From the NCBI RefSeq assembly GCF_003334405.1, contig NZ_QOWM01000005.1: a stretch of 64,000 nt of DNA; one strand, 5' to 3'. Position 1 is the first letter of the stretch. The number at the start of each line of letters is the position of its first letter. The notes under the pieces were generated by a model, which saw nothing but the letters and a program-made list of their open reading frames with translations, was not told where the DNA came from and ran no database searches. Both the position numbers and the translations under genes were made by a program. This stretch comes from Escherichia coli (GTDB lineage: Bacteria > Pseudomonadota > Gammaproteobacteria > Enterobacterales > Enterobacteriaceae). Of the stretch, positions 26,170 through 64,000 are shown in pieces.

Positions 26170-26700
26170 TTACTGATATTCAAGAGTGAAGGTAGCCGTG
26201 GCATTGATATGCCCCGCAGTGACAGGCACCTGTGTCGCCATTAGCCGGGCGTAAAAATTCAGCGTATTTGGTTTACCCGGCGTCAGGGTCGTCCACGAAA
26301 TCGCGGACGATGGGGCATTAATGGGTATCTGATTTTGTTGCTCATTCAGAAGCTGTATTCCCAGTCCCGCAACCGCTGACACCGTATTTTCAAGTGCAAG
26401 CAGGTTGGCATTGTGGCTATCTGCAACACCGGTAAACCCAACTTTTACGGCAGAAACGGCATTACCACAGGGTGACAGCAAAATACGAAATGGAACGACA
26501 GGAGTCGTCGCGCCAATGTTGTTAAATTGCTTCGCCGCGTTTTCCATCAGATCAACAGTAAAATTGGTTGATTCAGCGGCCACACTACAGCCGTTATCTC
26601 TGACATAGCCGCGGATAGTAATCGTGCTATCCGCAGCCAAAGCGTGACTTACCGCCAGCCACAAAAAAGCGCACAGAAGATAAAAAGGTTTGTTTCTCAT
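26170..26700 (-). CDS. fimF: type 1 fimbrial minor subunit
   Basis: 176 aa from MRNKPFYLL. Confidence 0.9.
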
Positions 26701-37838: not shown

Positions 37839-38489
37839 TTAATTTGATTTATTCGCATCCATCAGCGCTTTTAACTGCTCCGGCGTAAACGGTGGTTTGC
37901 GTCGGTGCAACATCGCATGGCAATTAGGGTACACAGGCAGCAAATCATTAACTGGATCCAGCTGGTAATCCTCTTTAATGGCTGACAGCGGCACCAGGTG
38001 ATGCACATGGATAAAGCCTTCAGCGATATCACCATAGATCTTCACCAGATCAACACCGCATACGTTGCACTGGCATCCATGATGTTCGACCGCTTTATCT
38101 CGGGCCTTTTTATCGCGTTCATAGCGGTTTACTGTCACCTTTATCGCCGCACCTTCAAGGTATGTCTCCTGCGACGGCAACTCATCCGGGAACAGAACGT
38201 CGGCTATGGGAGCCGCAGCGGCTTTATCCAGATGAATATGAAATCCCTGCTCTATGAGTAGCTTGACACATTTAGATTTTATTCCGCCGGTGAAATCCGC
38301 AGGGGTAAATTGCGTCCCCGTCATCAATGTCGCTGCGATGCCAGCAATCGCCTTCGAGGGGTAACGTCGGCCATGATATTCAATCTCATACAACCGCGCA
38401 GGCTGGAACTGATGAGTTTCTCCCGCATCCCATAAATGGATAGCTTCGATGATATACCGCCGCGGAAGATGATCAGGGAGTTTATTCAT
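37839..38489 (-). CDS. HNH-family nuclease with an uncharacterised ~135 aa N-terminal domain
   Basis: 216 aa; C-terminal GCQCNVCG...IHVHHLVPL...NDLLPVYPNCHAMLH is a zinc-ribbon HNH motif; convergent with nanS. Confidence 0.6.
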   Translation of the reverse strand: MNKLPDHLPRRYIIEAIHLWDAGETHQFQPARLYEIEYHGRRYPSKAIAGIAATLMTGTQFTPADFTGGIKSKCVKLLIEQGFHIHLDKAAAAPIADVLFPDELPSQETYLEGAAIKVTVNRYERDKKARDKAVEHHGCQCNVCGVDLVKIYGDIAEGFIHVHHLVPLSAIKEDYQLDPVNDLLPVYPNCHAMLHRRKPPFTPEQLKALMDANKSN

Positions 38490-38568: not shown

Positions 38569-38811
38569 TTGAACAGCAGAAAATTTGCGAGCATGATCGC
38601 AATTATTTCACTGCCAGGGATATCAATAGCTTCCAGTAAATCGCTACAGCAGGCAATTGCCAATATAAAAATCTGGCACAAGGGTGAACAGCGCGCGCCG
38701 CATAAGCCATTGTTATTGCTATACGTATTAGCGGGATACCTGAATGGACATCCGCGCCTTTTCGATTATTGTAGTGGAACAGTCTACGAGGATGCAGTTC
38801 GAAGTGAGTAA
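38569..38811 (+). other. unassigned 80 aa ORF divergent from the HNH gene
   Basis: Contains ...KIWHKGEQRAPHKPLLLLYVLAGYLNGHPRLF...; no confident family assignment. Confidence 0.25.
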
Positions 38812-43091: not shown

Positions 43092-44057
43092 TTATGCCGG
43101 TAACTCCGGGGGTAATGCTTCTTCCAGTCGGTTAACCATATTGCCGAGATGGGATGCATCATATTCCATGACGGGGCGTTGCCTGATGATACTGACCACC
43201 AGTGGTTTGATTAACATATTGGTCGCGGCCCGTTGTTGTATACCGGCGGCGAAAATGATCTCCAGAGCATTCTGATCGATAACACGGGCCAGATTCTCGT
43301 TCAGATTTTCAATCTCATGTCCGGTCAGCAGGAAACTGCCGGCAAGCCATGTCACCTGCTCCTGAATCATTGCCAGAATTTTGACGCGATCTTCTTCAAC
43401 CAGCGCTCCGGCAATTTTTCCTGATACAGCGGAGGCAATCATTCCCCCCAGAACACCGCCAACCACACGCCCTGTCAGTGCACCAAATGGTCCCAGTGGA
43501 CTGAACAGTATTCCGCCCGCCACTGACCCGACAGCACCACCTGCCACACCGGAAGATGCCACGGCAAGATTCCTGATGAACTGCGTACCGGAGATCCGTC
43601 CCCGCAACATTTTGATCATGTCAGGGCCGGTTGTGACAGCTACCAGTGCCAGAGATGTCACCAGCGTACCCTTCATCACTTTGTTCAGGGCACTGATATT
43701 TCCTGCACCGGTCCCCTTCTGAAGAGCCAGTCGAACAGTCGGGCTGGCAGTCGAAAAATCAATGTGCTTCAGCATACCCTGAACAACACTGAGCCGGTGG
43801 AGTTGCTGGGTTGTGACGTAGACAGCCAGTGTGCGGGTGAAGGTTTTTCCTGCCTGGACAGCAGCTGTCTGCAGGGCAGCATCGCGATCGCCGGTGCTGA
43901 GCCAGAAGACCGATGCCGTCAGGGCAAAACTGATCCCTCCGGCCGCCAGACTGACAACCGAACCCTCGGCAATATCATAAGTGACCGATTCGATGGTCCC
44001 GAACCGGGTGATATTACGGGCCTGAGTATAAGTCAGATGAGCCATACACGCGGCTTC
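43092..44057 (-). pseudogene. C-terminal fragment of an unidentified glycine-zipper-rich island protein, fused in-frame to a truncated IS66 tnpC
   Basis: Last ~320 codons of ORF 43092..45068; [41 protein letters not shown]; unlike IS66 TnpC C-termini. Confidence 0.35.
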
Positions 44058-45950
44058 CGTTATTCTGCCGGATTCGTATAACGCCCGGTAACCACCGTAA
44101 GCATCGGCCTGAAGCACACCGCTGTAACCGGCCAGGTGATTTTGTGGATGGATACCTTTCCGGTCCGGACTGTACGCGAACCAGACCGCCGGGGGCATCT
44201 GTGAACCGGCGTTACGGTCATCACGGACGTAGACCCACAGCCGGGCTGTCCGGGTTTTACCGCTGCCCGGCTCCTGGACCGGGACGGGGATATCATCAGC
44301 ATGGACTTTACCGGGCATCAGCACATACTGGCGCAGGACGTCATACAGCGGCTCCAGCAGTTCAGCAACAGCACCTGTCCAGCGCCCCAGTGTGGCACGG
44401 CTCAGCTCCACTCCCTGACGACGGTATATTTCTGACTGGCGGTATAACGGCAGATGGTCTGCATATTTCCCGGTGACAACATGGGCCAGAAGCCCCGCTC
44501 CGGCATAACTGCGTGCAATGGGTTTTGAAGGTACTGGTGCCTGCACGATATGGTCGCACCGGCAACAGGCCTGTTTCGGACGTTGTGTTTCGATAACCTT
44601 AAAGGCGCTGCTGATAAGCTCCAGTTGCTCTGACACATCACATCCCAGAGAACTGAGTTCACCACCACAGGCAGGACAGCATTCCTCTTCCGGCCGGATA
44701 ACCCGGGTTTCACGGGGAAGTGAGGCCGGTAACGGTTTACGGGCTGAAGACTGGCGCAGGGCGGATGGCAGTACCGGGTCATATTGCTCACCCAGCGTTT
44801 CCGCCATTTCTTCCTGAAGTGCGCTGATTCGCTCCTGTGCTTCCTGTATCTGCCGTTCGGTTTTTGCACGAAGTTTTTCTGAGCTTTTACCGAACTGCAT
44901 ACGTTGCAGTTTCGCAACCAGCGCCTTCAGCCGGTTGATTTCGGAAGCATAAGCCGCCACCCGCTGTGAGAGCAGGCGGTTGTATTCAGCCATCTGGCGG
45001 ATGGTGTCCTGTTGCGTCTGCAACAGTGCCCGCAGGCGGGCGTTCTCATGAGCAAGTGAGGTGTCCATATCCTCACTTTACAACGGGTTATATGCGGATT
45101 CCAGCGCGTTCCGTTCGTTTCGGGTGCTTCCAGTTGATACCTTCAAGAAGCATGGATAACTGAGCCGGAGTAAGGTGCACCTTGCCGTCACGGGTGACTG
45201 GCCAGACGAAGCGGCCCCGCTCCAGGCGTTTGGTGAAGAGGCACAGTCCGTCACTGTCAGCCCACAACACTTTTATCTGGTCACCCCGGCGTCCGCGGAA
45301 GATGAACAGGTGTCCGGAGAACGGGTCATCCTTCAGGACGTTCTGAACTTTTGATGCCAGGCCGTTAAAGCCATTTCGCATATCGGTGATACCTGCAACC
45401 AGCCAGATACGCGAACCTGCAGGGAGAGATATCATCAGTGGCTGCTCCCTTTTATTTCGCGGATAAGTGTCTGTAATAACGCCGGCGTCAGTTTACCTTT
45501 AAGCCTGAGAGTTCCGGCCGGCAGAACCAGCTCACAACACAGACTGTCGGACGGTGTATTTATCTGCTCTGGTTCCTGTGCGGGGGCCGGGATTTTATTA
45601 TCCGGCTCCGGCGTTAACGTCACGGGAAGCAGTGCCGGCATATTTTTTCCGGAAGGCAGCAGGCCACCTTTCCGGTATTGATGGCGCCAGTTGAAGAGCA
45701 GGTTATCGTTGATTCCGTTTTCCCGGGCGATCTGCGCCACACAGGCTCCGGGCTGCAGTGACTGCTCCACTAAGGCGATTTTAAACTCATAAGGGAAGTT
45801 GGGCCGCCGGGGACGTTTTTTTACCACGGGGGCTTCGGATATAACGGTGCTTTCAGGACGTACGACTGGTACCGTGGAAAATTGTCCGTAACCCTCAGTA
45901 TCAGCTGTGAGGTAACGTTCCGGCACGGGACGCTCCGCTTCAATGGCAAT
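44058..45950 (-). mobile_element. IS66-family element, copy 1, truncated at the tnpC 3' side
   Basis: tnpA-like (45435..45926), tnpB (45088..45435; WLVAGITDMRNGFNGL) and first ~337 codons of tnpC (CCPACGG zinc-finger, through EAACMAHL); boundaries approximate. Confidence 0.65.
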
Positions 45951-56852: not shown

Positions 56853-57620
56853 ATGACTTTACGAACTGAAAATCTGACGGTCAGTTACGGGACAGACAAG
56901 GTACTTAACGACGTTTCACTCTCACTGCCAACGGGGAAGATCACCGCCCTGATCGGTCCTAACGGTTGCGGGAAATCGACGCTGTTAAACTGTTTTTCGC
57001 GGCTTTTAATGCCGCAGTCTGGCACCGTATTTCTCGGCGATAATCCCATAAATATGCTCTCATCGCGCCAGTTGGCCCGCAGGCTTTCGCTGCTGCCTCA
57101 GCACCATTTAACGCCAGAGGGGATCACAGTCCAAGAGCTGGTTTCGTATGGTCGTAATCCCTGGCTGTCACTCTGGGGGCGTCTCTCCGCTGAAGACAAT
57201 GCACGAGTTAATGTCGCCATGAACCAGACCCGGATCAATCATCTTGCCGGTCGTCGGTTAACCGAGCTTTCCGGCGGTCAGCGCCAGCGCGTATTTCTGG
57301 CGATGGTCCTGGCCCAGAATACGCCCGTTGTATTACTTGATGAGCCAACCACCTATCTTGATATCAATCACCAGGTGGACCTGATGCGGTTGATGGGCGA
57401 ACTCCGGACTCAGGGGAAAACGGTGGTCGCTGTGCTGCACGACCTTAATCAGGCTAGCCGGTACTGCGATCAACTGGTGGTAATGGCAAACGGACATGTT
57501 ATGGCGCAAGGCACACCAGAAGAGGTGATGACCCCAGGATTGCTGAGAACAGTATTCAGCGTGGAAGCGGAAATACACCCCGAGCCGGTATCTGGCAGGC
57601 CGATGTGCCTAATGAGGTAG
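56853..57620 (+). CDS. fecE: ferric citrate ABC ATPase
   Basis: 255 aa; Walker A GPNGCGKST and LSGGQRQR signature. Confidence 0.9.
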   Translation: MTLRTENLTVSYGTDKVLNDVSLSLPTGKITALIGPNGCGKSTLLNCFSRLLMPQSGTVFLGDNPINMLSSRQLARRLSLLPQHHLTPEGITVQELVSYGRNPWLSLWGRLSAEDNARVNVAMNQTRINHLAGRRLTELSGGQRQRVFLAMVLAQNTPVVLLDEPTTYLDINHQVDLMRLMGELRTQGKTVVAVLHDLNQASRYCDQLVVMANGHVMAQGTPEEVMTPGLLRTVFSVEAEIHPEPVSGRPMCLMR

Positions 57621-58177
57621 ATTGCACAGGCCGTAAGAACCAAACCACGACTGAATGAAACTGGACTGGCGCCAGCAAGCCTGTTCAGACTGGGGCTGAA
57701 CTTTTCCGGACTCTGAAAGATTACCAATACTCATCGTCCATCCGCTTGCTTTAGGCTGACAGGTTCATAATCAACGCAAACCAGAGCTGTACAGGCTTGG
57801 GCGCGGCTTTCAAACCAGTCGTGATCACGGCAATCAATTTTGAACTCTGCTTAACGGACATTTCTGTATAACCCTTACGGCAACGAAAAACGCGAAGTTA
57901 AAATTTTAGAAACCCAAAAACGTGACATGACTAAGTTTAGATTTCAGGGGGGGAGATCAAAAAATTTCGCTCTGTGCCAGAGCGGACATTCACGGAGCTG
58001 GTTCATTACCAATGAGGTTGGGCTTTTGAGGATAAATCAATGATCAGACGCCAACGTAAATCAAAAGCAACCCTGGAACGGAATTGCTAATCCAGTTTCT
58101 GACCATCGATTTTTCTAAAAAGTGTGCGTTTGCTACTACTTAGGTAGGTGCAGCTTTCTTAATCACCGGCAGCCACG

Positions 58178-58519
58178 TTATACAGGCCAGTTGATGGATC
58201 GATTGTTATCAATGATATCTTCATGAGTCGGTGTCTCACCCAGCTTACCGAAGCTGGCATAAAGTGAAGGCAGACGGGCCCGTCCTTCTCCCTTTTTCGC
58301 CAGAGGGAAAGCGCGAAGCATGGTGGCAGCCTCCCAGTCACAACAATAGGATGGTGTGCACGGCTGCTGACGCCATGATTCAGCGATAGAGCCGGAAAAT
58401 ACGGGGTCAAAGCCGGTATCATTAACCAGAGTCATCGTGACCTGTACTGCGGCTGGATGATCTCCTGCTACTGCAACTGCTAGGCGACCGCGGCTCCCTT
58501 CAGGTAGTGAAGTGGTCAA
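58178..58519 (-). pseudogene. C-terminal fragment of an NAD(P)-binding oxidoreductase-like gene
   Basis: 113 aa ORF resembling only the C-terminal part of F420/NADP-type oxidoreductases (VAGDHPAAVQVTMTLVNDTGFDPV); no N-terminal Rossmann motif. Confidence 0.3.
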
Positions 58520-58795
58520 CTTAAACTGGCCACCGATTTAGAGTTTTTCCAGTAGCGGTGTTCCGATTCGTTTGGGGGCAACCCGCCGTTATTGTCATGC
58601 GGTCTTAGCGAGCTGTAATACCCGATGATATAGTCTGTGATCGCATGAGCAGCTTCGCTAAAGCTTATGCGTTAGCGCTCTACAGAAGTACAGAGCATGT
58701 CTGCACGGTTGCTCTGGGTTATAGAGCAAAATTGCGGGTATATTGAAAGGTGGTACGCAATTTATTACGTGAAAAAGCTGTAATTTCTAGCCAGT

Positions 58796-58817
58796 GTTAC
58801 GTAAAATATAACGTAAC
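58796..58817. promoter_or_regulatory. palindrome at the dnd promoter, candidate DndB operator
   Basis: GTTACGT-aaaatata-ACGTAAC containing TACG-N10-CGTA, overlapping a TAAAAT -10-like hexamer 21 bp upstream of dndB. Confidence 0.35.
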
Positions 58818-58837
58818 AAAATTCACCTTATGCTTTT

Positions 58838-59935
58838 ATGGATTACAGCATGGCTAGTGTTGATGCAGATTACTGCTACTCGTTTCCGGCTATACGTGGC
58901 ATTCAGGCTGGTCGCCCTTTCTATATCGCCACATGCCCGATGCGTATCATCCCGAAAATATTCAGTTTTGATGAAAATGATGTGCCACCGGAATTACGCG
59001 CACAGCGCACGCTAAATAAATCGCGCATTCCCGAGATGGTACGTTATTTGTTGGAAAACCCTAAAGATTATGTGTTTTCAGCTCTGACGGCTTCCATTGC
59101 CGTAGACGTTCAATTTGATGAGTTTCCAGGTTCTAACAATCTGGGGACGTTGTGCGTACCAATGGATGCGCAAATTCTAATCAATGATGGACAACATCGC
59201 CGTAAAGCGATTGAAGACGCTTTAGACGCTCGTCCGGAGCTGGGCCAGGATAATATCCCGGTGTTGTTCTTTGTCGATGAAGGCTTAAAGCGTAGCCAGC
59301 AGATGTTCGCCGATCTGAATAAATACGCCATTCGCCCCAGCCCATCGCTGGCGTCGCTATACGATCATCGCGATGCCTGTTCGAATCTGGCGCGTTATCT
59401 GGCAATGTCAGTAGAGCCGTTTGTTGGGATGACGGAACTGGAAAAATCTGGCATTAGCCAGAGGTCGAATAAGCTATTTACGTTGAGCAGCATCAAGCAG
59501 GCTACCCGCGCATTGTTGGGCAAAGATCCCAAAGAGGATAACTTTGAGGAATGCACCCACATTGCTACCCAATATTGGCAGGCTATTTTTAGTGTAATGC
59601 CTGATTGGCAATTAGCGGCTAAAAAGGAAGTTTCACCGGTTCAATTGCGACAAGATTATGTTCACGCTCATGGCATTGGATTGCAGGCACTTGGGCAACT
59701 AGGATATACCCTGCTGACGGATTATCCTGAGCAATGGCCGGAGAAAATCGCTGCACTCAAAACATTTAACTGGCGTAGAAACAATCCGGACCTCATCAAG
59801 CGAGCGATGCAGCATGGGAAGTTGAGTAAAACCAGTACCGCGATCCAGTTAACCTGCAATGCGCTAAAAACCGCACTCTCAATTCCCCTCACTCCTGAAG
59901 AACAGGAGCTTGAAGCTCAAATGGTTGTCTCATGA
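58838..59935 (+). CDS. dndB: DndB-like DGQHR-domain protein (regulator of DNA phosphorothioation)
   Basis: 365 aa with exact DGQHR motif (LINDGQHRRKAIEDAL); first gene of a four-gene coupled operon. Confidence 0.8.
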   Translation: MDYSMASVDADYCYSFPAIRGIQAGRPFYIATCPMRIIPKIFSFDENDVPPELRAQRTLNKSRIPEMVRYLLENPKDYVFSALTASIAVDVQFDEFPGSNNLGTLCVPMDAQILINDGQHRRKAIEDALDARPELGQDNIPVLFFVDEGLKRSQQMFADLNKYAIRPSPSLASLYDHRDACSNLARYLAMSVEPFVGMTELEKSGISQRSNKLFTLSSIKQATRALLGKDPKEDNFEECTHIATQYWQAIFSVMPDWQLAAKKEVSPVQLRQDYVHAHGIGLQALGQLGYTLLTDYPEQWPEKIAALKTFNWRRNNPDLIKRAMQHGKLSKTSTAIQLTCNALKTALSIPLTPEEQELEAQMVVS

Positions 59936-61554
59936 GTAAATTAGTTCAGGCCTATGATTTGGCCGAATACGAAGATTTTATTAATCAGGAACAGTTCGCC
60001 GGACGTCCTCTGGCCGAATATGTTGCTGAGGTTCAACGAATTTATTGTGCGGATAAACGTCCGTGGGTGATTGGCTACAGCGGTGGGAAAGATTCTTCCG
60101 CTGTGATCACGCTGGTGTATCTGGCCTTGCTCGGCCTGCCCCCGGAAATGCGCAGCAAAGATATTTTTGTGGTGTCGTCCGATACGCTGGTCGAAACACC
60201 GGTAGTCGTGGATCTGATTAAGAAAACGATGTTGCAGATTGAGGCGGGAGCGAAGCGTAACGGCTTGCCGATCACTCAACACGCGGTAACGCCTAAAACG
60301 AATGAAACCTTCTGGGTCAATTTGCTGGGGAAAGGTTATCCGGCTCCAACTCGTAGTTTCCGTTGGTGCACTGAGCGCATGAAAATCAACCCGGTGAGTG
60401 ACTTTATTAAAGATAAGGTCAGCCAGTTTGATGAAGTCATCGTCGTACTTGGTTCGCGCAGTAGTGAAAGTGCTTCTCGTGCGCAGGTGATCGCAAAGCA
60501 CAAGATTGATGGATCACGCCTTGCCCGGCATACCACGCTGGCAAATGCATTCATCTATACCCCCATTGATACCTGGGATGTAGAAGATGTCTGGAAGCTG
60601 CTGCGGGGCGCGTTCCGCTATGCCCCTGAAGATATCGACGAGTGGGAAAGCCCGTGGGGTGGAAACAACCGTCCACTGTGGACGTTGTATATGGATTCTT
60701 CCGCACAGGGTGAATGTCCTCTGGTAATTGATGATAGTACCCCTTCCTGCGGCAACTCGCGTTTTGGCTGTTGGACCTGTACCGTTGTCACTAAAGATAA
60801 GGCGATGGAAAGCCTGATCAAAAACGGTGAAGAATGGATGTCTCCGTTGCTGAAATATCGTGATCTGCTGGCATTTACCACCGATCCGGTGAATAAAGAC
60901 ACGTTTCGAAACTATAAGCGCCGTACTGGTAAGGTGAGCTATCAGTACGCTAAAGAAAGTGATGAGCCGGGGGCTGAGCGTAAGCATGTTCCAGGTCCTT
61001 ACTGGCTAAAATACCGTCAGCAATGGCTCAAAGAATTGCTGGAGATAGAGCGCGATTTGAATGCTCAAGGCCATACCATTACGTTAATTACCAAACCAGA
61101 GCTGCATGCGATTCGTCAGGAGTGGTTGAAAGATCCTAATGAACCAGACTGGTATGACACGCTGCCGGGTATTTACCGTGAAGTGTATCAACAGGATTTA
61201 GACTGGGTGGTGGACGATCAGTCGCGCTTTGATGCCAGCGATGCAGATCTGTTGGTGCAGATAGCGCAGGGATTTGACGTTGTGCCTGAAATGGTGATGA
61301 AACTCATCGAGCTGGAAGTTTCAATGGAAGGCTTAAGCCGTCGTCAGGGCATTTTTGACAAACTTGGCACGATTTTAAAGCAGGACTGGGGCACTCTCGA
61401 AGAAATTGAACAACAACAGGTCACTCTGCAAAAACGAGTTGAACGAGATATTCATCAGGAAGAACTTACAAAGCTGGAAACTGAACTTCAGGTTTTACAG
61501 CGCAGAATTGTTGATGCCAGTGAATCCTCGTTACTGATTGGGGAGGAGAAATAA
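59932..61554 (+). CDS. dndC: DndC-like PAPS-reductase-fold sulfurtransferase
   Basis: 540 aa; PP-loop SGGKDSS; cysteine cluster CGNSRFGCWTC; ATGA overlap with dndB. Confidence 0.85.
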   Translation: MSKLVQAYDLAEYEDFINQEQFAGRPLAEYVAEVQRIYCADKRPWVIGYSGGKDSSAVITLVYLALLGLPPEMRSKDIFVVSSDTLVETPVVVDLIKKTMLQIEAGAKRNGLPITQHAVTPKTNETFWVNLLGKGYPAPTRSFRWCTERMKINPVSDFIKDKVSQFDEVIVVLGSRSSESASRAQVIAKHKIDGSRLARHTTLANAFIYTPIDTWDVEDVWKLLRGAFRYAPEDIDEWESPWGGNNRPLWTLYMDSSAQGECPLVIDDSTPSCGNSRFGCWTCTVVTKDKAMESLIKNGEEWMSPLLKYRDLLAFTTDPVNKDTFRNYKRRTGKVSYQYAKESDEPGAERKHVPGPYWLKYRQQWLKELLEIERDLNAQGHTITLITKPELHAIRQEWLKDPNEPDWYDTLPGIYREVYQQDLDWVVDDQSRFDASDADLLVQIAQGFDVVPEMVMKLIELEVSMEGLSRRQGIFDKLGTILKQDWGTLEEIEQQQVTLQKRVERDIHQEELTKLETELQVLQRRIVDASESSLLIGEEK

Positions 61555-61555
61555 C

Positions 61556-63556
61556 GTGCTCATTAAACAGCTGGTATTACATAATTTTCGGGTATTTAAC
61601 GGTACACATACCATTGATCTGGCACCCAGAAAGCGTCCGCACGATTTGAATCCACGACCTATTGTGCTGTTTGGTGGTTTAAACGGCGCAGGGAAAACGT
61701 CTATCCTGTCGGCGATCCGCATAGCGTTGTATGGACGACTGGCGTTTGGGCTAGCGACTCAACAGCAAGAGTATATCGAACAACTCAGTGCATTGATTCA
61801 TAACGGCGCGTACTATATTGAGCAGCCGGAAGAAGCATCTGTAGAACTGACGTTTACCTATAATAAAGGCGGTCATGAGGCCGAATTTACCGTTACGCGA
61901 ACCTGGAAAAAGGGGAAGAGGGACCGCCTTTCTCTGCAACAGGATGGGCAGCCACTCAGTGAGCTGGATTACGATCAGTGCCAGGGATTTCTAAATGAGT
62001 TAATTCCGCATGGCATTGCTGATTTGTTCTTTTTCGATGGCGAGAAAATTGCAGAACTTGCTGAGGACGAATCCGGTAATATTTTACGTACTGCCGTACG
62101 ACGCTTATTGGGGCTGGATCTCATCTCTAAACTGCGTAACGATTTAATGATTTTTGTTAAGCGTCAGCAATCCAGCCAGCTAGCAAGTTCTCAGCAACAA
62201 CAGATTGCAGAGCTTGAAAAACAGAGTAAAGAATTAGCCTGCCAGACAGAAGCACTGCTGGAAAGCGCCGATTTTGCCAAATCGCGGATTGAGTTTCTAT
62301 CTAAAGATATAACCCATTATGAAGGCTTGCTAAATGCTCAGGGGGGCGCTTTTGCCCAGACTAAAGCGCAGGAAAAACAGAAAGTCGAAACGCTGCTAAA
62401 AGATAAAGAACATCTGGAAAAAGCACTGAGACAAGAATGCGATGGCTCGCTACCTTATGCGCTTGCGCCCACTATTTTGTCTCATTTGCTGCAACAAATT
62501 GCTGATGAAACGCAAATTAAACAGGCAAAAAGCTTTGAAAAAGAGCTGAGCCAGTTTTTAACGCAACTCAGAAATGATATTGCATTTCGTTCTGCGGGGA
62601 CTGGCAAAATAGCAGCTGAAGCGATTACCGATAATCTAAAAGATTATATGGCAACGAAACCAAAAGGTGATTTGCTCTTTGATATCTCTGAGCGTGAAGC
62701 AGGTATGCTTCAACAGTCTATTGAGATAGATAGTAAAAGAGCATGGCAGCGTTTCGAGCTTTATCGCACACAGTTATCTGAGATTGAACAACAGTTAGAA
62801 CAAGCGGCTGCTAATATTGCCCGCGCTCCTGAAGATGAGCAGCTGATGGATCTCTTTGAAAAATTACGTGACCTGGATAGGCAGCGCGAAGCCCAATTGC
62901 AGAAATATCGGTCATTGCTAGAAGATGCTAAACGTAAAAAACAGCAGCAACTGGATTGTGTTCGTCAGATTCAAAAAGCGCATGACGCCGCTCGTTATCA
63001 GCACAGTTATAGCAGTGCGTTTAAGAATGCTCAGGAAACGATAAATTTACTCGATCGCTACAGCGATGTATTAACCCAGGCTCGGGTAAAAACGCTGTCG
63101 ACAAACTTCGAGCTTGCTTACCGTAAGTTGGCTCGCAAAGAGGATTTACAACTTAGTGCGCATATCAACCCTCAAACGTTTGATGTTGAATTAATTGATG
63201 AGAATGGCTCAGTAATTAACCGTAAGTTACTTTCTGCTGGTGAAAAACAGATTTATGCAATTGCTATTCTTGAGGCGCTGGCGAAAACCTCTGGCCGTGA
63301 TTTACCAGTGATCATTGATACACCATTGGGTCGTCTGGACTCTCAACATCGAGATAAATTGATTAATCACTACTTCCCTGAAGCCAGTCATCAGGTTGTG
63401 TTGCTTTCTACCGATACTGAAGTAGATGAACGTTATTTTGTTGATCAGTTGCGTGATGATATCTCTCATGCTTATGAGATTGTGTTTAATGCACATACTA
63501 AGTCATCAACGCTGAAGCCTGGTTATTTCTGGGAATTAACTAAGGAGGCTATCTGA
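61556..63556 (+). CDS. dndD: DndD-like SMC/ABC-type ATPase
   Basis: GTG start after SD gggaggag; Walker A GGLNGAGKTS; long coiled-coil middle; C-terminal DTPLGRLD signature-like segment. Confidence 0.8.
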   Translation: MLIKQLVLHNFRVFNGTHTIDLAPRKRPHDLNPRPIVLFGGLNGAGKTSILSAIRIALYGRLAFGLATQQQEYIEQLSALIHNGAYYIEQPEEASVELTFTYNKGGHEAEFTVTRTWKKGKRDRLSLQQDGQPLSELDYDQCQGFLNELIPHGIADLFFFDGEKIAELAEDESGNILRTAVRRLLGLDLISKLRNDLMIFVKRQQSSQLASSQQQQIAELEKQSKELACQTEALLESADFAKSRIEFLSKDITHYEGLLNAQGGAFAQTKAQEKQKVETLLKDKEHLEKALRQECDGSLPYALAPTILSHLLQQIADETQIKQAKSFEKELSQFLTQLRNDIAFRSAGTGKIAAEAITDNLKDYMATKPKGDLLFDISEREAGMLQQSIEIDSKRAWQRFELYRTQLSEIEQQLEQAAANIARAPEDEQLMDLFEKLRDLDRQREAQLQKYRSLLEDAKRKKQQQLDCVRQIQKAHDAARYQHSYSSAFKNAQETINLLDRYSDVLTQARVKTLSTNFELAYRKLARKEDLQLSAHINPQTFDVELIDENGSVINRKLLSAGEKQIYAIAILEALAKTSGRDLPVIIDTPLGRLDSQHRDKLINHYFPEASHQVVLLSTDTEVDERYFVDQLRDDISHAYEIVFNAHTKSSTLKPGYFWELTKEAI

Positions 63557-63909
63557 TGCTCCCGAATCGAATGGCGCTTAGCCGTCAGACTGAAGATCAG
63601 CTTAAAAAGCTTAAAGGGTATACTGGGATTACACCCAATATTGCTGCCCGGCTAGCATTTTTCCGCTCGGTGGAGAGTGAGTTTCGCTATTCACCTGAAC
63701 GAGATAGTAAGAAGCTGGATGGTACGCTGGTGCTGGATAAAATTACGTGGCTGGGGGAGACACTACAAGCTACAGAATTGGTGCTGAAGATGCTTTATCC
63801 ACAATTAGAGCAAAAGGCGTTGATTAAGGCATGGGCTGCTCATGTTGAGGATGGGATTGCGGCATTGAGAAATCATAAAAGTTTAATTAGCTTATTAAAT
63901 GCTATATAA
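63556..63909 (+). CDS. dndE: DndE-like small protein
   Basis: 117 aa, start overlaps dndD stop; position and size match DndE. Confidence 0.7.
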   Translation: MLPNRMALSRQTEDQLKKLKGYTGITPNIAARLAFFRSVESEFRYSPERDSKKLDGTLVLDKITWLGETLQATELVLKMLYPQLEQKALIKAWAAHVEDGIAALRNHKSLISLLNAI

Positions 63910-63953
63910 AACATTTAAATTTATTGGTATGACCTTTTGTTTTCAACCTAAAA

Positions 63954-63977
63954 CCACCTCCTAGGGAGGTGGTGATT
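63954..63977 (+). terminator. hairpin after dndE
   Basis: ccacctcc-tagg-gaggtgg inverted repeat. Confidence 0.4.
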
Positions 63978-64000
63978 GAGTTTTATAATTGTCATATTGC

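Follow-up and report, generated by a model that had tools for sequence, protein, structure and literature searches.

A dndBCDE phosphorothioation operon identical to that of Escherichia coli B7A and the DUF262/ATPase gene pair beside it

We analyzed a 64,000-nt stretch of Escherichia coli DNA (contig NZ_QOWM01000005.1 of NCBI RefSeq assembly GCF_003334405.1; hereafter, the window), which closes with a cluster of DNA phosphorothioation (dnd) genes. The open reading frame (ORF) listing contains dndB, dndC, dndD, and dndE, all intact and co-directional at ~58.8 to 63.9 kb, and the window ends 91 nt past dndE. An original prediction, made from the letters alone, had described four co-directional, translationally coupled genes ending in a DndE of 117 aa, and the ORF listing (dndE at 63556–63909) and junction sequences bear this out. 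The dndB/dndC junction is an ATGA overlap, dndC and dndD meet at TAA-C-GTG with GGAGGAG ahead, and the dndD/dndE junction is a TGATG overlap with AAGGAGG ahead. Given these overlaps and Shine-Dalgarno sequences, translational coupling of the genes is a reasonable prediction. The G+C content is 55–62% in the fec genes and drops to 41–51% in the dnd genes, which fits a putative separately acquired module.

Family membership was assessed with NCBIfam equivalog cut-offs, PADLOC Dnd models, and sequence searches of the PDB. The Dnd assignments had been proposed together with a profile hidden Markov model check; when this check was run, all four proteins exceeded their equivalog cut-offs, and they also matched the PADLOC Dnd models. 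DndB scored 460.9 bits against TIGR03233 (cut-off 328, aligned residues 12–361) and 582 bits against the PADLOC DndB model. DndC reached 538.8 bits against TIGR03183 (cut-off 290.4) and 721.5 bits against NF005316 (cut-off 536). DndD aligned over its full length with TIGR03185 (507.1 bits, cut-off 245.85, residues 8–664 of the 672-aa ORF form) and scored 1010 bits against the PADLOC DndD model. DndE scored 83.3 bits against TIGR03184 (cut-off 71.85). Its PDB matches, both entered as “DNA sulfur modification protein DndE,” were 4LRV (228.8 bits, residues 1–108), which is the crystal structure of the DndE of E. coli B7A, and 5WTU (225 bits). DndB, DndC, and DndD had no match in the PDB sequence search at the thresholds applied, leaving a solved relative for DndE only.

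Every motif that had been named beforehand is present. DndB carries DGQHR at residue 117, and DndC carries the PP-loop SGGKDS at residue 50 and CGNSRFGCWTC at 273–283, with cysteines at positions 262, 273, 280, and 283. In Salmonella, the DndC C280S change abolishes the phosphorothioate (PT) modification, and the same residue is Cys280 here (PMC11662687). DndD has the Walker A sequence GLNGAGKT and an LSAGE signature. The top PADLOC models for DndC and DndE are labeled “Type II methyltransferase” (“MTase_II”; PDLC03333, 1240 bits, and PDLC03334, 236 bits, respectively). We set this identity aside, as the DndC and DndE models and the NCBIfam equivalogs agree with each other; the label looks like a PADLOC labeling quirk, and it could mislead automated annotation.

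Over window 57600–64000, E. coli B7A and 11 further complete genomes show 100% identity, and a thirteenth shows 99.7%. DndB (WP_000179013.1), DndC, DndD, and DndE are all identical to the B7A proteins. B7A serves as the reference for this system, and structures have been solved for DndE, DndG, and part of DndH from this strain. In its DNA, d(GpsA) and d(GpsT) occur in the GpsAAC/GpsTTC context, and ~12% of the sites carry the modification (PMC4507180, PMC6435447), its cluster protects against phages (PMC10470545), and DndB acts as a regulator of the dnd operon (PMC4507180). We conclude that the region is almost certainly the dndBCDE phosphorothioation operon of a B7A-type leuX (tRNA-Leu) island, representing the modification half of a Dnd/Dpt restriction-modification system. 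This supports the earlier description of a modification module on a variable island. The island is mosaic, rich in insertion sequences (IS), and, in its B7A type, located at tRNA-Leu.

The genes and signals of the locus are collected in Table 1.

Table 1. Features of the dndBCDE locus and its borders, in window coordinates
Feature	Coordinates	Strand	Description
Upstream DndB operator-like box TACGCAATTTATTACGTG	58754–58771	+	One mismatch to TACGN10CGTA
Proximal DndB operator box TACGTAAAATATAACGTA	58798–58815	+	Exact TACGN10CGTA
dndB	58850–59935	+	361 aa, RefSeq start; DGQHR/ParB-like negative regulator of the operon
dndC	59932–61554	+	540 aa; PP-loop ATP pyrophosphatase/sulfurtransferase
dndD	61556–63556	+	666 aa, GTG start; SMC/ABC-type ATPase
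dndE	63556–63909	+	117 aa; small DNA-binding subunit
GC-rich hairpin ACCACCTCC-TAG-GGAGGTGGT	63953–63973		Between convergent operons
Convergent “ATP-dependent nuclease” gene, last two codons and stop	63992–64000	−	First gene beyond the window

Two of the start codons call for comment. RefSeq prefers ATG 58850 for dndB over an alternative ATG at 58838, which gives a 365-aa form. Cys29 is important in Salmonella DndB (PMC4507180), and the 58850 start turns cysteine 33 of the 365-aa form into Cys29, as in the Salmonella protein. For dndD, the start is most likely GTG 61556 and not the mechanical TTG 61538 that yields the 672-aa ORF form, a choice based on the RefSeq start and the strong Shine-Dalgarno sequence upstream.

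The dndB promoter carries two predicted DndB operator boxes. The TACGN10CGTA operator is known from footprinting work on Salmonella Cerro 87, where the promoter has two boxes (PMC4507180). Exact copies of this pattern occur twice in the 64 kb, against 0.57 expected by chance, and one of them is the proximal box, which sits 23–35 nt ahead of the candidate dndB start codons. The upstream box lies 44 nt 5′ of the exact one, matching the two-box arrangement of Salmonella. It has one mismatch, and such sites are not above chance on the match alone (12 in the window vs 16.7 expected), so its weight comes from its position.

At the other end of the operon, the hairpin between the convergent transcription units has a 9-bp stem with six GC pairs. 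A T-run follows it immediately on the minus strand, and TTT follows 7 nt on along the plus strand; it therefore reads as a predicted terminator on both strands. Beyond it, the B7A coding sequence annotated as an “ATP-dependent nuclease” ends at position 26393 of our B7A locus L001, which corresponds to window position 63992, and the window is 100% identical to B7A there.

The original prediction had implied that the cluster was an oddity, with neither dndA nor a restriction partner in sight, and this implication did not hold for either gene set. It was accurate that no cysteine desulfurase gene lies between fecE and dndB: a tblastn search of the whole 64-kb window with E. coli IscS gave a best E value of 0.5. 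The absence of dndA is the published norm in the Enterobacteriaceae, where clusters consist of dndBCDE without dndA (PMC3519819, PMC4373003) and the housekeeping IscS supplies the sulfur. In E. coli, IscS is the sole desulfurase that supports dptBCDE (PMC3519819), and the suggestion that it stands in for DndA thus agrees with the literature. The gap between fecE and dndB (57621–58837) holds only a short minus-strand ORF and an IS3 transposase remnant. This short ORF is hypothetical in B7A, and some other genomes label it an NAD(P)-binding-domain protein. The gap, with its IS3 remnant, marks a module boundary inside the island.

As for restriction, the statement that the window itself holds no dptFGH-like genes was confirmed, and so was the caveat that a partner might follow downstream. 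In B7A and FDAARGOS_1077, the opposite strand 3′ of dndE encodes the “ATP-dependent nuclease,” a DUF262 protein, dptH, dptG, dptF, and a tyrosine integrase, followed by tRNA-Leu. A query spanning the junction was covered by exactly 13 complete E. coli genomes, and these are also the 13 genomes with dndBCDE matches of ≥99.7%. All of them have this same gene order, from the ATPase-nuclease gene to tRNA-Leu, and dptFGH lie a few kb past the position of the window end. The restriction proteins scored 780 (DndF), 640 (DndG), and 2832 bits (DndH) with PADLOC. In the other E. coli dnd lineages, similarity ends at the end of dndE, and therefore the last 119 nt of the window are diagnostic of the B7A-type arrangement. 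The orphan look of dndBCDE is a window-edge effect.

These observations bear on two other explanations of the operon. It might, as the title of the original prediction suggests, be a solitary module (R-minus, M-plus) with no cognate restriction genes and with epigenetic or antioxidant roles only, in keeping with the window's own gene content and with the frequency of decoupled Dnd modules across prokaryotes (PMC10853773). We consider this very unlikely, as the diagnostic 119 nt are restricted to the 13 genomes that have the B7A-type junction, every one of which has dptFGH, and the final 9 nt of the window already belong to the first convergent gene. Complete E. coli genomes carry dndD/E and dptFG in nearly equal numbers (207 vs 212), and dptFGH were present in all of the E. 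coli dnd islands that Ho et al. examined, with the B7A island placed at tRNA-Leu (PMC4373003). Alternatively, the operon could be a decayed, nonfunctional remnant, which would suit an IS-rich, mosaic island with IS3 remnants immediately upstream of the genes. We give this even less credence: the four full-length ORFs encode exactly the proteins of B7A, in which PT has been measured, and both the promoter boxes and the Shine-Dalgarno sequences remain intact.

The assignment to a B7A-type Dnd/Dpt island has points against it as well. The downstream context of the source genome is inferred from the 13 matching genomes. Furthermore, BLAST showed that the window lacks ~14.8 kb of the upstream B7A island, and no complete genome in our collection is collinear with window 39–47 kb; on these grounds, we rejected the idea that the window is B7A itself, and its source is therefore a close relative or a different assembly. 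The two loci share the same four proteins, promoter boxes, and convergent-operon junction, and they differ in the upstream island only, where the B7A-specific ~14.8 kb include an IS2 copy and the Ag43 region.

Among other known systems, that of Salmonella enterica Cerro 87, dptBCDE-dptFGH(I), shares the four-gene operon without dndA, the dependence on IscS, the GAAC/GTTC context, and the TACGN10CGTA operators. The difference lies between dndE and dptH: Salmonella carries dndI (DUF262 fused to HNH) in this position, and the B7A type carries a DUF262-only gene and a separate ATPase/TOPRIM-like gene. Based on the literature, Streptomyces lividans dndABCDE encodes homologous DndB, DndC, DndD, and DndE with the same chemistry, but there a dndA cysteine desulfurase is linked to the cluster, the sequence context is GpsG, and dptFGH are absent.

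The gene content, motifs, operator boxes, and identity to studied proteins are our own results, and the pathway that we attach to them is taken from the literature. IscS, encoded elsewhere in the genome, would take sulfur from cysteine to form a persulfide. A complex of DndC (with its PP-loop and cysteine cluster), the ABC ATPase DndD, and the DNA-binding DndE would then exchange a non-bridging phosphate oxygen for sulfur at GAAC/GTTC, giving GpsAAC/GpsTTC. DndB would repress the operon through its two promoter boxes, and DptF-DptG-DptH, encoded convergently past the window end, would translocate along and nick DNA that lacks PT.

This re-identifies a well-studied locus, and the finding is correct but ordinary: exactly this form of dndBCDE has been described before, and it is among the best-characterized phosphorothioation loci. 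Its practical value is as an annotation anchor, placing the window in a B7A-type tRNA-Leu defense island, and such a locus predicts a DNA-degradation phenotype on pulsed-field gel electrophoresis. The sole forward-looking point is the uncharacterized DUF262/ATPase-nuclease pair just past the window, which is tightly linked to dnd in Proteobacteria and has gone unnoticed in a published functional construct.

The pair occupies the position of dndI, between dndE and dptH (L001 26393–29199, minus strand), and window 63992–64000 represents its last 9 nt. The DUF262 protein has 401 aa, with Pfam GmrSD_N at residues 11–159, a DGQQR NTPase motif, and a match to PADLOC NsnA at 113 bits with good coverage. 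The ABC ATPase has 536 aa, matches AAA_15/AAA_21, and weakly matches an OLD-family nuclease structure; its best PADLOC match is HEC-04 (94 bits), a validated ATPase-TOPRIM fusion. In its C-terminal half, we read from the translation the kind of E...DxD pattern that is typical for a TOPRIM domain. The DUF262 gene shares 4 nt with dptH and 10 nt with the ATPase gene. We rejected the DUF262 protein as a DndI orthologue: Pfam detected only GmrSD_N and no HNH domain, and phmmer against the PDB (E ≤ 1) returned no DndI (9JFL), SspE, or BrxU.

The slot between dndE and dptH varies among E. coli dnd lineages (loci L001, L006, and L007), while the flanking Dnd and Dpt proteins are 81–96% identical. E. 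coli S51 has the same architecture and position, with pair proteins 43% and 30% identical to those of B7A and flanking Dnd/Dpt proteins 81–95% identical. The O157-type lineage (O157:H7/55989) has DGQHR-domain proteins and an AgrB-like protein at the same position. In these three E. coli lineages and in Salmonella, the slot holds a DUF262- or DGQHR-domain (ParB-superfamily) protein.

Outside of E. coli, the pair adjoins dndBCDE in Yersinia, Aeromonas, two Vibrio species, Shewanella, two Pseudomonas strains, and two Salmonella conjugative elements. Counting the B7A and S51 lineages, it lies beside dndBCDE in 11 of 11 sampled proteobacterial loci, at 43–80% identity, and in four of these no dptFGH is visible in the available sequence. 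In the Bacillus, Paenibacillus, and Hymenobacter loci (44–45% identity), there are no dnd genes within 10 kb of the pair. This sample of DUF262 homologues is small and biased to relatives, so we treat the result as a lead only. Within the dnd-dpt cluster of Shewanella violacea, between dptH and the pair, there is also a gene for a 289-aa ScoMcrA-type sulfur-binding-domain/HNH protein (PF26340 and HNH_2; locus L013 8909–9778). S. violacea presumably modifies its own DNA with PT.

These features raise an extension of our interpretation, more than a true rival to it, in which the restriction arm is not DptFGH alone and the pair is a second PT-coupled effector analogous to DndI. In Salmonella Cerro 87, dndI is co-transcribed with dndFGH, and its product senses PT and alone restricts phage in combination with IscS-DndBCDE (PMC11662687). 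The shared position, the gene overlaps with dptH and within the pair, the GmrSD_N domain with its DGQQR motif, and the proteobacterial linkage to dndBCDE, including the loci without visible dptFGH, all speak for such a role, as does the use of DUF262 as the PT-sensing domain in DndI and SspE (PMC11662687). Against it, phmmer detected no similarity to the PDB sequences of DndI or SspE, the best family matches (NsnA of Menshen, and HEC-04) are defense proteins without a described PT link, the Bacillus, Paenibacillus, and Hymenobacter pairs have no dnd genes nearby, and defense genes cluster for reasons besides shared function. On balance, we regard a second effector as possible but somewhat doubtful. 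Stated more broadly, and equally tentatively, the two proteins could together form an undescribed effector that depends on phosphorothioate or reads it and that partners dndBCDE with or without DptFGH. A literature search of incomplete coverage found no named Dnd-linked DUF262/TOPRIM pair (dndJ, dndK, or dptI).

The closest described systems are HEC-04 and Menshen (NsnABC), of which Menshen also combines a DUF262 protein with an OLD-type ATPase, often with a TOPRIM effector. Menshen has three genes (NsnA, DUF262; NsnB, an ABC ATPase with DUF3696; and NsnC, the effector), whereas the pair has two, one of which encodes the ATPase and the TOPRIM-like region as a fusion. The ATPase matches PADLOC NsnB at 52 bits over only ~80 residues, with no DUF3696 match and no third gene. 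Also unlike Menshen, the pair lies within the dpt operon and is consistently linked to dndBCDE in Proteobacteria.

The pair would matter for published work with pWHU4387, the B7A “dndBCDE-FGH” clone (PMC10470545). Its primers map to an unbroken 16.5-kb span, L001 20933–37481, with the left primer site at window 58532–58556; because the span is contiguous, the clone carries both the DUF262 and ATPase genes in full. The phage-resistance phenotypes obtained from pWHU4387 may therefore include a contribution of the pair. If the pair is indeed an effector, part of the resistance credited to B7A DndBCDE-FGH would come from it.

Further upstream in the island, window 14821–50000 differs from the corresponding B7A locus L003 in being without the IS2 copy, a 1.4-kb stretch, and an Ag43/GTPase/YfjI block. 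Conversely, window 44039–45890, which adjoins an IS66 element, has no B7A counterpart.

The window also holds, at 38569–38811 (plus strand), a fragment comprising 44 N-terminal residues of a “phosphorothioated DNA-binding restriction endonuclease” (NF045808, 60 bits, best match at ~38641–38772). The fragment adjoins an intact gene for a 216-aa HNH endonuclease (37839–38489, minus strand), and E. coli EC21Z-147 has an intact 290-aa version of the truncated endonuclease at the same locus. The idea that the endonuclease at ~38.6 kb was inactivated because of dnd was unsupported: the 1.6 kb surrounding the fragment are matched over at least 80% by ~859 genomes, far more than the 207 dnd-positive ones, so the truncation is not confined to strains that carry dnd.

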